Assembly (NCBI RefSeq): GCF_017348835.2
Contig: NZ_CP071375.1
Direction: 5' to 3' (one strand)
Origin: Escherichia coli
Lineage (GTDB): Bacteria > Pseudomonadota > Gammaproteobacteria > Enterobacterales > Enterobacteriaceae
Length of the DNA: 64,000 nt
Part shown: positions 45,165 through 48,921 of the stretch, in pieces
Layout of the letters: each line of letters starts with the position of its first letter
Position numbering within the stretch: the stretch's first letter is position 1
Notes under the pieces: model-generated
Seen by the model: only the letters and a program-made list of their open reading frames with translations
What the model was told of the DNA's origin: nothing
Database searches by the model: none
Position numbers and translations under genes: made by a program

Positions 45165-46355
45165 TTAATGAATTTCTTTTGCCACTACTAGCGCGACACC
45201 GCTTTTACCCTTCATTTGCAGCGCATAGACTCCACCAGCCACTACCACTAATAGTGCGCCCAGCAGATAAATCATTCGGTAGCCAGTATGTGCAACCATC
45301 ATCCCCATCACACAGGCTCCCAGCGCCAGGCCTGCATCCATCGCATTGAAGAAGAGGGAGTTTGCGACACCGATTTTATGCGGTTCCACTGAACTGATAA
45401 TCTGCGTCTGAAAAACTGGCGTCACGGAACCATACCCGATACCAATCAACGCGCCAGAAACAACCATCATTATGCTTCCCTGGGTGTAGCCGAGAACCAC
45501 CAGTCCTACCGTAAAGAACACAAGGCAAGGGTAAACCACATATTTCGGTCCTTTTTTGTCGCAGACATTGCCGGTAAAGGTACGGCAGATCATCAGGAAG
45601 ATGGCGTAGCAAAGCAGGAAATTACTGGCCGCCGACATCAGATTAAGTTCGCGGGCGTAAAGCGCCAGAAAGGCAGAAACCCCGGCATACGAAAAGGTCA
45701 TAAAGAATGTAACCATGGCAAACGGCAATGCCGCGCGATCGAACATGGCGGCGAAGCCCATCTTTGGCTTTGAACCGTCGGCATGGCTGATAACCGGCGG
45801 CACGGTCATAATCAGCGACAGGATAATCCCCACCGCCGCAACGCCAGTACATAACCAGAAAGCCATATTAAAGGCCTCCCAGCGCGCCATATTCAGGCCA
45901 ATCCACGGCCCGACCACCATTGCCAGCCCCATTGCCAGAGAGAAAAAACTGATGCCCTCCCCACGTCGGGAGGCCGGGATCAGCCGCGCGGAAATCGTTC
46001 CCTTTACCGTTGTGATAACCCCGAAGGTAATACCATGAAGCACCCTAATAAAAAGCAGTGATTCTATTGAGTGGCAAAAAGGATACAGCGCAGTGACCAC
46101 CAAAAAGGCCAGAGAAGAGAGCACCAGAATAGTTTTATTCGAATATTTACCCACCCATTGCCCGGCAAAGGGTCGAATAACAATCGCCGCAATTAAAAAT
46201 AATGTCACCAGCAGACCAGCTTTATCAGGAGAGGCATGCAAGCGGTCAGAGATATAAATTGGCAACAATGTTAGTAAAACATAAAAGACGAAGAAAATAA
46301 TAAAGCTGATGATGGTTATTGCCCAAAAATCCTTCGTCCATAACTTCTCTTTCAT
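45165..46355 (-). CDS. MFS transporter (396 aa, ~12 TM)
   Basis: Polytopic membrane protein with MFS-like loops; divergent from the LysR gene. Confidence 0.7.
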   Translation of the reverse strand: MKEKLWTKDFWAITIISFIIFFVFYVLLTLLPIYISDRLHASPDKAGLLVTLFLIAAIVIRPFAGQWVGKYSNKTILVLSSLAFLVVTALYPFCHSIESLLFIRVLHGITFGVITTVKGTISARLIPASRRGEGISFFSLAMGLAMVVGPWIGLNMARWEAFNMAFWLCTGVAAVGIILSLIMTVPPVISHADGSKPKMGFAAMFDRAALPFAMVTFFMTFSYAGVSAFLALYARELNLMSAASNFLLCYAIFLMICRTFTGNVCDKKGPKYVVYPCLVFFTVGLVVLGYTQGSIMMVVSGALIGIGYGSVTPVFQTQIISSVEPHKIGVANSLFFNAMDAGLALGACVMGMMVAHTGYRMIYLLGALLVVVAGGVYALQMKGKSGVALVVAKEIH

Positions 46356-46506
46356 ACCCTACCGCCTGTCAGGATGACGCACGCAGACAACACTCCCGTT
46401 ACTGCGGTTGCGTCAAATTGTGATGTACTTTGCAGAACAGAAGTATAAATGGCGGCATGCTATTAGAGAAATTAATCGTTTTAATATTATTGATTAGCAA
46501 ACTCTA

Positions 46507-47385
46507 ATGACTCTTACCCAAATAAATTCTTTACTCGCCGTGCTGGATTACGGTGGCTTTACTGAAGCCAGCAAGCGATTGTTCATGACGCAGTCGGCGG
46601 TAAGTCAGGCAATTGCTGCCCTCGAACAAGAACTTGGTGTGAATATACTGTTACGCGATCGCCGTAAAGCTATACAACTGACCACAGCAGGTCATCGCAT
46701 TGTGCAACATCTGCGCGCCATTAATCGGGAAGTTAACGCAGTAAAAGAGATAGCCGAGCAGGAAAAGCAGAACCCTCAAAGAACGCTGAGACTTGGTTGT
46801 TTCCCCAGCGTCTGCGCCTGTATCTTACCGGTTGTGATTCGCTACTTTGAAATTCATCATCCGAATATAAAAATTATTCCTTTTGAGGAAAATAGCACAG
46901 CGATTATTGATTCGCTTCAGAATGAATCCATTGATGCCGGTTTTGTTCATTTTCCGGTGAGCGGAATGTACTCCGTGCCCATTTATCAGGATAAATTCAC
47001 CGTAGTGTTACCGCCCAACCATGCTCTGGCAAAAAACAGCACTATTACAGTGGAAGAATTAATGGGTGAACCATTAATCATTAGTAAAGGACGCTATGAA
47101 TTAAGCATTATGGCACTATTTAAAGAAAAGAATATTACCCCACAGATAAAATATGAATTTAATCACCCGGATACAGCGATCAGTTTTATTCGACAGGGAT
47201 TAGGCATCGCCTTATTACCAGAGTTAACGCTGAAAACCATTGCAGATGAATTGTGTTCCGTTCCTCTCGAACCAACCTTCTATCGACAGATTTCGTTGCT
47301 GGCTAAAGAAAAGCCGGTAGAAGGCAGTCCACTGTTTTTACTACAAATGTGTACGGAACAACTCGTGGTGAGTGGAAAAATTTGA
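46507..47385 (+). CDS. LysR-family transcriptional regulator (292 aa); intact counterpart of the K-12 yfaH pseudogene
   Basis: N-terminal HTH (LFMTQSAVSQAIAALEQELGVNIL) and LysR substrate-binding domain. Confidence 0.75.
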   Translation: MTLTQINSLLAVLDYGGFTEASKRLFMTQSAVSQAIAALEQELGVNILLRDRRKAIQLTTAGHRIVQHLRAINREVNAVKEIAEQEKQNPQRTLRLGCFPSVCACILPVVIRYFEIHHPNIKIIPFEENSTAIIDSLQNESIDAGFVHFPVSGMYSVPIYQDKFTVVLPPNHALAKNSTITVEELMGEPLIISKGRYELSIMALFKEKNITPQIKYEFNHPDTAISFIRQGLGIALLPELTLKTIADELCSVPLEPTFYRQISLLAKEKPVEGSPLFLLQMCTEQLVVSGKI

Positions 47386-47850
47386 TGTAAGACATGAGAT
47401 TGATGACAAATGTAAGATTGCCTGATTCGCCACACTTAGTTGGCCTGTAGTCTTTACCAGGCGTAATAATTCGTTTTCACCTGATTTTGGTCCACTTTGT
47501 GAATTAGCGATATATATTTATCCAGTTTAGGGAAGTGACAATGACTCCAGGTAGAAACCAGTATGAAGCGCCCGACTCACTGTCAAAACCGATTGTTGAG
47601 AGTAATGACACTCCGGCGAACAGTACACAGTTTACTCTGGAGCCACTCTCAATCTTCAAGTGGGATACCTAATAACTTGTCAGGGAAGTTATCAATATCT
47701 GTTTGTTACTTATTACCGTGTTTATTAACAATAATGATACTTTCTAACATGCGTAAAGGTCTTCGTAATAAAATGAGCTAAATTTGATAGTGAATATATT
47801 CTGCAAAGATTAAATTGTATCTTGTTAACTCACAATACAAGGAATCATTT

Positions 47851-48921
47851 ATGCCAAATACATCTATTCAATTATCTCGCTGTAATCTTTTACAAAATAA
47901 TAAATTGCAAACAGCAGAAATTTACAAAGAATCACAACAAACCGCGAAACTTGAGATTTTTTGCAATGAGTTTCTAAAAATATCTCAAAGTAGATTCGGG
48001 TTATCAACCTCAGCAGACAACATAGCTAATTTATTGGCTTTTTTCACGAAAGCCTCAGATGAAATTGATAGTATCAAGACCCAAAAAATTGACGTTCACA
48101 GTTATGGTTTCGTACCAATAAGACATTTTGTCGAGCATGTCATAACGTATAAAAATGAATTTGCAGCGGATTATGAACCCTATACCCTTACCTTTACCCG
48201 AGGTGAAAACAACGAAGGTGTTTTGAGTATCGAAAGCAAAGAAGGGTCTATTTCACAAAGAACAATAAACTTAAATGAATATGAAACTGCAATTAACATC
48301 ATCAATGAGCATGTTGCAAAAGAAAATACCCACAACACGGTCCAGTCACTGACAGAAAAAGACATTTCAAAAATAAACAGCTCTGATAAGCCTTATAAAA
48401 CCAGCAGTGAGGAAAGTATTAAAAGTCAACTTTACAGCGATCAAAAAAAATATGCAGACCTGCTACAACATTCTGAGAAAAATACAGAATGGTACAAATA
48501 CGCATCCTCCGAGGAACGCTATGATAAATTCAAGAATTCTTCTAAGGAAATTAAAAACACCTACAAGCAAATTGTACAAGCGCAGAAAAAATTGAACCAA
48601 ATGAAATATATCAATAAATTAGGTGGTGAGCTTATCGATATCGCCGACAAAAAGTTAGCACCATTAATAAATGATAGTTTCAGCTATACACGAGATTTCT
48701 TTGCTTACTCAAAACAGGAAAATAACATCTTCACGTTTGATAATTCTAAGTTTGAAGATCCAAAGGAAAAAAAAGGTTTAATGGTACAACACAGCAATGG
48801 GCAACTGATTATTACTGGTGAGTATTGTCCTGAAGGTGTGCAAACAGCATTCACCCAAGAACAATATGATAAATTAATAAGATACATTAATATTTTCTTT
48901 ACTTTCCCGAAATGCGAATAA
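47851..48921 (+). CDS. Orphan AT-rich hypothetical protein (~356 aa from MPNTSIQ; ORF extends to 47815)
   Basis: AAGGA RBS 8 nt before the ATG; strongly AT-rich, Lys/Asn/Ser-rich; no family recognised. Confidence 0.5.
   Translation: MPNTSIQLSRCNLLQNNKLQTAEIYKESQQTAKLEIFCNEFLKISQSRFGLSTSADNIANLLAFFTKASDEIDSIKTQKIDVHSYGFVPIRHFVEHVITYKNEFAADYEPYTLTFTRGENNEGVLSIESKEGSISQRTINLNEYETAINIINEHVAKENTHNTVQSLTEKDISKINSSDKPYKTSSEESIKSQLYSDQKKYADLLQHSEKNTEWYKYASSEERYDKFKNSSKEIKNTYKQIVQAQKKLNQMKYINKLGGELIDIADKKLAPLINDSFSYTRDFFAYSKQENNIFTFDNSKFEDPKEKKGLMVQHSNGQLIITGEYCPEGVQTAFTQEQYDKLIRYINIFFTFPKCE

Follow-up and report, generated by a model that had tools for sequence, protein, structure and literature searches.

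For transcriptional regulators of the LysR type (LTTRs), a divergent target gene is the usual arrangement, and the binding sites follow the T-N11-A rule. A pair of this kind, a regulator and a transporter of the major facilitator superfamily (MFS), is catalogued as O-island 97 (OI-97) of Escherichia coli O157, and its regulator has been studied in enterohaemorrhagic E. coli (EHEC). There, deletion of z3495 led to lower expression of the enterocyte-effacement locus (LEE), lower adherence and lower colonisation of mice, the Z3495 regulator was reported to increase LEE expression and to bind at the promoter of rcsF, and deletion of z3494 was without phenotype; the regulator was termed laterally acquired (PMC10819331). 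In K-12, the same place holds the pseudogene yfaH (b2238). A second relevant background is xenogeneic silencing, as AT-rich accessory genes without homologues (ORFans) that are silenced by H-NS are a general class in E. coli. Here, we analyse a stretch of 64,000 nucleotides from E. coli (contig NZ_CP071375.1 of assembly GCF_017348835.2), referred to as the window, in which the interval between inaA and glpQ holds the complete transporter/regulator pair followed by an AT-rich orphan gene of 356 codons. Both are already known, the pair as OI-97 with its published regulator and the orphan as a hypothetical protein annotated in O157 since the first genome sequences. We think it reasonably probable that the pair is ancestral and that the orphan came with an insertion found in E. 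coli only, as a real but weakly constrained gene for a cytoplasmic accessory protein. The interval would then show a polymorphic E. coli locus, built from two independent modules, in its most complete form. What the analysis adds to the earlier records is the reading of OI-97 as a deletion in K-12, a relic of inaA beside the orphan, and an annotation artefact.

The MFS gene (45165-46355, minus strand, 396 amino acids) and the LysR-family gene (46507-47385, plus strand, 292 amino acids) are both intact open reading frames (ORFs), i.e., the complete divergent pair reported by the first-pass annotation of this DNA is indeed there. These are the same two genes in the same place as OI-97 of O157. 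The Sakai counterparts are ECs_3121 (MFS, 2 amino acid differences) and ECs_3122 (yfaH, LysR, identical), and the LysR protein shares its RefSeq accession, WP_000176738.1, with that of O157 C1-057. The difference lies in the host: the published pair is from EHEC, while the window pair sits in a genome that matches a pig isolate, the entire 4.9-kb interval being 100% identical to the chromosome of E. coli PE164. The published role at rcsF and the LEE would have no bearing on a host that lacks the LEE.

The gene order in Salmonella enterica (glpT-glpQ, LysR, MFS, yfaE-nrdBA) is the same as in the window, with identities of 85.6% for MFS, 79.8% for LysR, 89.1% for GlpQ and 96.4% for YfaE. Syntenic MFS orthologues are found in Salmonella, Klebsiella and Kluyvera at 84-86% identity, and in Klebsiella and Kluyvera the pair adjoins yfaE too. 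A K-12-derived genome retains a C-terminal stump of 34 amino acids from the MFS protein and one of 80 amino acids from LysR, and lacks the orphan, in agreement with the first-pass annotation, by which K-12 has yfaH remnants only. The syntenic orthologues together with the stumps argue that the pair is an ancestral enterobacterial unit, vertically inherited, and that the K-12 state is a deletion, contrary to the published term "laterally acquired" (PMC10819331). The horizontal acquisition that the first-pass annotation suggested from composition does not extend to the pair, which appears ancestral and is of ordinary composition, the atypical composition being limited to the orphan part.

The yfaH remnant of K-12 corresponds to the last 80 codons of the window LysR gene, and the NCBIfam model of this remnant, NF007272, matches LysR residues 226-292. 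Relative to the window, K-12 lacks about 1.88 kb, comprising most of the MFS gene and the first ~212 LysR codons, and in addition the 1,714-bp segment that bears the orphan. BLAST breakpoints and junction sequences place the interval missing in K-12-type genomes, which is most of OI-97, at 45264-47150. Direct copies of the 8-bp sequence CAGATAAA are found at 45264-45271 and 47143-47150, the K-12 junction falls in this sequence, and the breakpoints of the deletion overlap by 13 nt in BLAST. K-12-type genomes would have lost the ~1.88 kb by deletion between these 8-bp repeats. Reading OI-97 as a K-12 deletion changes the view of what was published as a horizontally acquired virulence regulator.

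In the Salmonella, Klebsiella and Kluyvera sequences, the MFS gene abuts yfaE with no intervening inaA, and inaA occupies the yfaE-side position in E. coli, E. fergusonii and Citrobacter. Thus, inaA itself seems to have been inserted or lost in a lineage-specific way at the locus. Another observation concerns the pair: in 96 complete genomes (e.g., NZ_CP021844.1 of EC1515 and NZ_CP024273.1 of F9792), the MFS-LysR allele has merely 80-90% DNA identity to the common one. This is far beyond what is normal within E. coli and suggests that the allele was imported, by homologous recombination, from a different lineage of Escherichia.

In Pfam, the MFS protein matches PF07690 (MFS_1) over residues 14-342 (E 1.2e-45), with a second match over 215-375, so that both six-helix halves are covered. 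It falls below every NCBIfam subfamily cut-off (best NF003477, 111 bits vs 374), and these models therefore point to no substrate. The LysR protein matches PF00126 (HTH_1) over residues 3-63 (E 1.4e-17) and PF03466 (LysR_substrate) over 88-267 (E 5.7e-36). The two genes share a divergent promoter region of 151 bp (46356-46506), in which an ATTA-N7-TAAT palindrome is present twice, overlapping, at 46462-46485; one further match is found in the 64-kb window, at 63241. By the T-N11-A rule the overlapping palindromes are a likely LysR box, to which the regulator would bind within the shared promoter and control the MFS gene, as in a classic LTTR unit.

The orphan (47851-48921, plus strand) is not part of this unit but belongs to a second module. 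Pair-only genomes, such as JNEC-KY178, match the window to 47394 and resume at 49109, with 1 nt common at the join. Because these genomes break at 47394/47395 and 49108/49109, the orphan sits in a separate segment of 1,714 bp (47395-49108), an indel found in E. coli only, with clean breakpoints, which is absent from both pair-only and K-12 genomes. The segment is placed between the LysR stop codon (+9 nt) and a GC-rich hairpin past the glpQ stop codon (49110-49131, GGATGGCG-CATGAA-CGCCATCC). This hairpin is common to genomes with and without the segment, lies 9 nt past the LysR stop in pair-only genomes, and would act as a terminator for glpQ. Within the segment, the orphan is separated from the LysR gene by 465 bp and from glpQ by 220 bp, and the GC content over 47700-49050 is 0.28-0.35 vs 0.45-0.57 in the flanking genes. 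The window allele is free of integrase and transposase genes, and no terminal repeats were found.

Among 5,426 complete E. coli genomes, both the orphan and the pair are polymorphic. The orphan segment is present in 1,052 (19%) and the OI-97-specific part in 1,232 (23%); both modules are contiguous in 710, in roughly 340 the orphan is there but the full contiguous interval is not, and roughly 520 have the pair but no orphan. Both modules are present in the window and in O157. Stumps together with the orphan are found in E92, in an isolate from The Gambia (the Gambian isolate), in TW10509, a strain of clade I, and in contig L021, stumps alone in K-12, the pair alone in JNEC-KY178, and neither module in MS7163, which has a ~200-bp inaA-glpQ spacer instead. 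All combinations of presence and absence are seen, and therefore the two modules segregate independently. Outside E. coli, the space between glpQ and its LysR or inaA neighbour at this locus is free of genes in Salmonella, E. fergusonii, Citrobacter tructae and a third inaA-bearing contig, and so is that between LysR and glpA in Klebsiella and Kluyvera, which are without glpTQ there. The orphan is thus taxonomically restricted to E. coli and dispensable in most lineages. The two findings that would have spoken against the first-pass annotation, a widely conserved core gene of known function or the same content in K-12, do not apply, as the orphan is accessory and K-12 does not have it.

Three distinct events involving the insertion sequence IS1 were seen at the segment (contigs L010, L011 and L012): one within the orphan at about codon 260, one beside glpQ, and one IS1-bounded deletion from the MFS gene to the orphan C-terminus. 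IS1 thus seems to be drawn to the AT-rich segment.

Is the orphan a gene, or is it a non-functional relic, without expression or selection, whose frame stays open by mere inertia while the AT-rich DNA around it decays? Judged from its alleles, it is very likely a real gene under weak constraint, and the relic explanation is rather improbable. An AAGGAA Shine-Dalgarno sequence (47839-47844) stands 7 nt ahead of the ATG, a canonical ribosome-binding site at the proper distance; an alternative TTG start at 47815 would give 368 amino acids. A scan for consensus promoters found no sigma-70 match upstream of the orphan on the plus strand. By a base-composition estimate, a 356-codon frame would be open by chance at ~32% GC with a probability of roughly 1e-12, so that chance does not account for the ORF. 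All nine full-length alleles that were translated have the frame open (window, O157, E92, WP8, WP5, the Gambian isolate and contigs L013, L020 and L021). Seven alleles together have 113 variable nucleotide sites and no stop codon, for which the probability under neutrality is about 0.009, as about 4% of random substitutions would create a stop. In 14 of 15 allele pairs, the ratio of nonsynonymous to synonymous substitution rates (dN/dS) is 0.42-0.72. In the C-terminal 144 codons (residues 213-356), the corresponding ratio for polymorphisms (pN/pS) is 0.21-0.37, so the C-terminal half is presumably the constrained, functional part of the protein.

The history of a homopolymer within the orphan, a tract of eight A (A8, 48443-48450) identified by allele comparison, also speaks against a relic. 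The O157 allele has lost one base in this tract and regained one 36 nt later, by which the frame is restored. The variant with nine A (A9, a +1 slip) truncates the orphan at 208 amino acids, and despite the slip-prone tract it is rare, with 4 complete genomes vs 342 with A8 in the same allele background. The O157 orphan (WP_001301786.1) is the same gene as the window orphan, with the same length and position. It differs in being a compensated -1/+1 double shift, while the window allele has the unshifted frame. The double shift rewrites residues 199-209, and overall the two proteins are 90% identical. The remaining full-length alleles examined have the window frame and not the O157 frame. The copies in PE164, E92, WP8, WP5 and the Gambian isolate are labelled "frameshifted" by the Prokaryotic Genome Annotation Pipeline (PGAP), and this label is an artefact because the reference protein is the O157 one. 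As a consequence, RefSeq calls most intact orphan alleles pseudogenes.

In the middle of the gene, two deeply diverged allele classes are seen at residues 160-205 (~48330-48465), NTVQSLTEKDISKINSSDKPYKTSSEESIKSQ vs NKIQTLTDKDTPKITNSDKIYKFIHELNIRTQ. Synonymous diversity is 0.14 here vs 0.03 in the N-terminal part, which suggests that this region is a recombination mosaic or that the alleles are old and balanced.

Several observations weigh against a functional gene, and part of them are what a relic would show. For residues 1-160, pN/pS is 0.85-1.2, i.e., about 1, with low diversity at both kinds of sites. The codon-position structure is weak, as GC at third positions (0.32) is not below that at second positions (0.30). 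No homologues were found anywhere searched, and the structure models are of low confidence: the AlphaFold2 predicted local distance difference test score (pLDDT) is too poor for use, at 44.6 with the full-length protein and at 47.2 with residues 206-356 alone. Deletion, IS1 insertion and splitting are frequent; IS1 lies within the orphan in 13 of 60 evenly spaced rows of carriers, about a fifth of the carriers sampled, and in TW10509 the orphan is split. Loss is clearly tolerated, since 80% of the genomes are without the orphan. Finally, the orphan adjoins a proven pseudogene relic, that of inaA, discussed below. We nevertheless prefer a real gene under weak constraint, given its frame, start signal and constrained C-terminal half.

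The orphan protein is hydrophilic, with a mass of 41 kDa, a pI of 6.1 and a grand average of hydropathy (GRAVY) of -0.73. It has no signal peptide, lipobox, transmembrane segment or hydrophobic N-terminus, the maximum 19-residue hydropathy being 0.63. The low-confidence models suggest a mostly helical protein, in which the centre is one long helical region and beta structure is limited to two small segments, and a Foldseek search of the PDB with such a model gave nothing at E <= 0.001. In sequence and profile searches against Pfam, NCBIfam, PHROGs, PADLOC and PDB, no match had an E below 0.19. A word-indexed search of 5.8 billion proteins gave 23 matches, all of them E. coli alleles or fragments with at least 82% identity, and an exhaustive phmmer search of 1.84 billion cluster representatives gave 12 matches, all fragments of the same gene. 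No copy was found in phages (tblastn, 50,697 records), and in a plasmid collection the single match is a 4.9-Mb record, evidently a chromosome. In 100,044 species-representative genomes, searched with two exact 8-residue patterns by which a diverged orthologue could be missed, a 3.5-kb contig was the sole match. The gene of about 356 codons with low GC and a good ribosome-binding site that was first described from the sequence has no recognisable family in these remote-homology and structure searches either.

Two of the matches need comment. The 3.5-kb contig (L013, JAIJJM010000334.1) is from a metagenome-assembled genome (MAG) labelled "Collinsella sp." and has the orphan at 94% identity; its presence there is almost certainly a binning error. 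A predicted protein of 408 amino acids in ENA (P0023) has an N-terminal part with PF01467 and PF05636 fused to orphan residues ~14-136 at 90% identity, and is probably a chimeric metagenome assembly. Two ideas on the origin of the protein were tried and rejected: an internal duplication of two beta-beta-beta-alpha modules (E 8.8 in BLASTP; E 0.15 in hhalign, with 13 columns aligned) and a decayed copy of the LysR gene (BLASTP E 83).

Our best guess is a niche-specific or conflict-type accessory protein that acts inside the cell. It would be soluble and cytoplasmic, act mainly via the constrained C-terminal half, be functionally independent of the LysR/MFS pair and, judging from its AT content, be silenced by H-NS and expressed under particular conditions only. 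There is a small chance that the orphan was born in E. coli, or evolves extremely fast, and has a new fold with either a conflict-type activity (single-gene phage defence or an inter-bacterial factor) or a role as an unrecognised secreted effector. If true, the two allele classes of the middle region would be kept by diversifying selection.

Single-gene defence loci are typically patchy, AT-rich, fast-evolving and stand-alone, and are found at hotspots between core genes. The orphan resembles them, as its presence is patchy with independent gain and loss between core genes, it is AT-rich, fast-evolving and stand-alone, and its middle region is variable with the two diverged allele classes. However, no family among the 5027 PADLOC-DB models was matched at E <= 1 by either orphan allele, PHROGs gave no match, no nuclease, ATPase, TIR, Sir2 or similar motif is present in the protein, and no defence genes adjoin it. 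That it is a single-gene anti-phage system, for instance of the abortive-infection type, or another conflict system in a variable hotspot, is therefore quite unlikely.

The first-pass annotation proposed an effector, toxin or adhesin-related protein. An adhesin or other surface protein finds no support, as the orphan shows no signal peptide, lipobox, transmembrane or beta-barrel segment. A type III effector or other secreted toxin, delivered via an N-terminal secretion signal, we regard as very unlikely. Ser, Thr, Asn and Gln are abundant among the first 22 residues, and acidic ones are absent there, but this polarity is just mildly above that of the already polar whole protein. The most conserved block contains HxxEH (residues 92-96), the sole catalytic-looking motif; however, it is expected by chance in about 1% of proteins of such composition and was picked out in hindsight, and we give it little weight. 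High AT content is shared with many effector genes, and the neighbouring regulator is reported to increase the expression of the LEE in EHEC (PMC10819331). Against this, similarity to effector or toxin families is absent in Pfam, NCBIfam and PDB, and no homologue was found outside E. coli. The orphan lies between the core genes inaA and glpQ, outside any prophage, LEE or plasmid and without phage genes nearby, and its carriers include many genomes not labelled EHEC or enteropathogenic E. coli (EPEC), e.g., sequence type 69 (ST69) and isolates with extended-spectrum beta-lactamases (ESBL) from humans, pets and wastewater. Least likely is that the orphan is a regulon member or partner of the pair, such as an enzyme making or modifying the transported compound: it does follow the LysR gene and shares its strand, and the 710 genomes have all three genes, but the modules segregate independently, Salmonella, Klebsiella and Kluyvera retain the pair without a third gene, the ATTA-N7-TAAT box is not repeated upstream of the orphan, and a pseudogene relic intervenes. 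We therefore keep to the cytoplasmic accessory protein described above.

The relic in question bears on the origin of the segment. An ungapped alignment of 47435-47547 (minus strand) to 44415-44527 has 78 of 113 nt identical (69%; E 1e-13 to 2e-15 in pairwise searches). It covers the last ~31 codons of inaA, the stop codon and downstream sequence similar to repetitive extragenic palindromes (REP), and at the protein level FPKLDKYISLIHKVDQNQVKTNYYA is aligned against FRQLEKYLEPIPKADWEQVKAYYYA. This is a decayed inaA 3' end, here called inaA'. At 37 sites that vary among inaA orthologues, the relic has the E. coli state at 24, that of E. fergusonii at 16, and those of two further outgroup contigs, Citrobacter tructae among them, at 10-13. 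Its changes at sites invariant among the orthologues are AT-biased, with 9 GC-to-AT vs 3 AT-to-GC. A search for a donor among InaA C-termini of many genera was given up, as these are about equally distant at the protein level and at the nucleotide level E. coli is only slightly nearer.

A second, possible relic is at 47721-47804, which aligns locally to the spacer upstream of inaA (45104-45182) with a score of 15, reached by 0.7% of 1000 shuffles. It is collinear with inaA', and the similarity stops at 45183, the same point where the spacer of B2-type genomes ceases to match the window; the extra ~70 bp of that spacer have no match anywhere in the window. As a relic of the inaA upstream spacer, this region is suggestive only. 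Taken together, the left ~410 bp of the segment would be a decayed, internally deleted copy of REP-inaA-spacer, i.e., a local copy, and the foreign-looking AT-rich cargo is therefore reduced to ~1.3 kb (47805-49108). The horizontal acquisition of the orphan that was first suggested from its composition thus stands as plausible, since it is AT-rich, found in E. coli only and absent at five outgroup loci. However, neither a donor nor any mobility gene or flanking repeat could be found, and over its left 410 bp the segment appears local. PGAP annotates a "hypothetical protein" of 43 amino acids at 47541-47672 (plus strand), which partly overlaps inaA' on the opposite strand and is probably spurious.

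We suggest that the orphan first entered the inaA-glpQ spacer of a diverged Escherichia haplotype, and that a single illegitimate recombination could then have stacked this haplotype behind the LysR gene. Against this history it must be said that it rests on one strong and one weak relic, and that no living inaA-orphan-glpQ haplotype was found among the genomes examined. The right end of the segment was likewise examined for a relic of the glpQ 3' end, in a 15-nt repeat (49080-49094 and 49130-49144), and this idea was rejected, with a shuffle p of 0.2-0.6.

On the left of the interval are nrdA, nrdB and yfaE on the plus strand, followed by inaA (44434-45084, minus strand), and on the right glpQ and glpT on the minus strand and then glpA on the plus strand. 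Between yfaE and inaA, at 44358-44425, there are repeats of the REP type or of bacterial interspersed mosaic elements (BIME), where the Rfam family naRNA4 gives a sub-threshold match (32.8 bits vs a gathering score of 59.5). The nrdA-nrdB spacer (about 42765-42990) seems to hold similar repeats, as the ORF translations there read REP-like. The Rfam scan gave sub-threshold, REP-derived matches alone, all outside the orphan segment. In O157:H7 C1-057 (contig L002, 5244-5899), the annotation gives glpQ as a pseudogene that has an internal stop.

How does the orphan compare with known classes of accessory genes? Its likeness to the non-LEE type III effectors (Nle) is limited to the polar N-terminus free of acidic residues and the AT-rich coding DNA. 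It differs from them in having neither sequence nor structural similarity and no prophage or LEE context, and in being found in many strains not labelled as attaching and effacing. From the H-NS-silenced ORFans, the segment differs by its local inaA relic, which is atypical of a simple foreign insertion, and H-NS silencing is here a prediction. With weak selection, a compensated frameshift and an adjacent local relic, the orphan offers a clean case for studying how species-restricted genes arise and persist. In the remaining respects it is like the H-NS-silenced class, i.e., a single gene of low GC content, patchily distributed, without homologues and under weak purifying selection.

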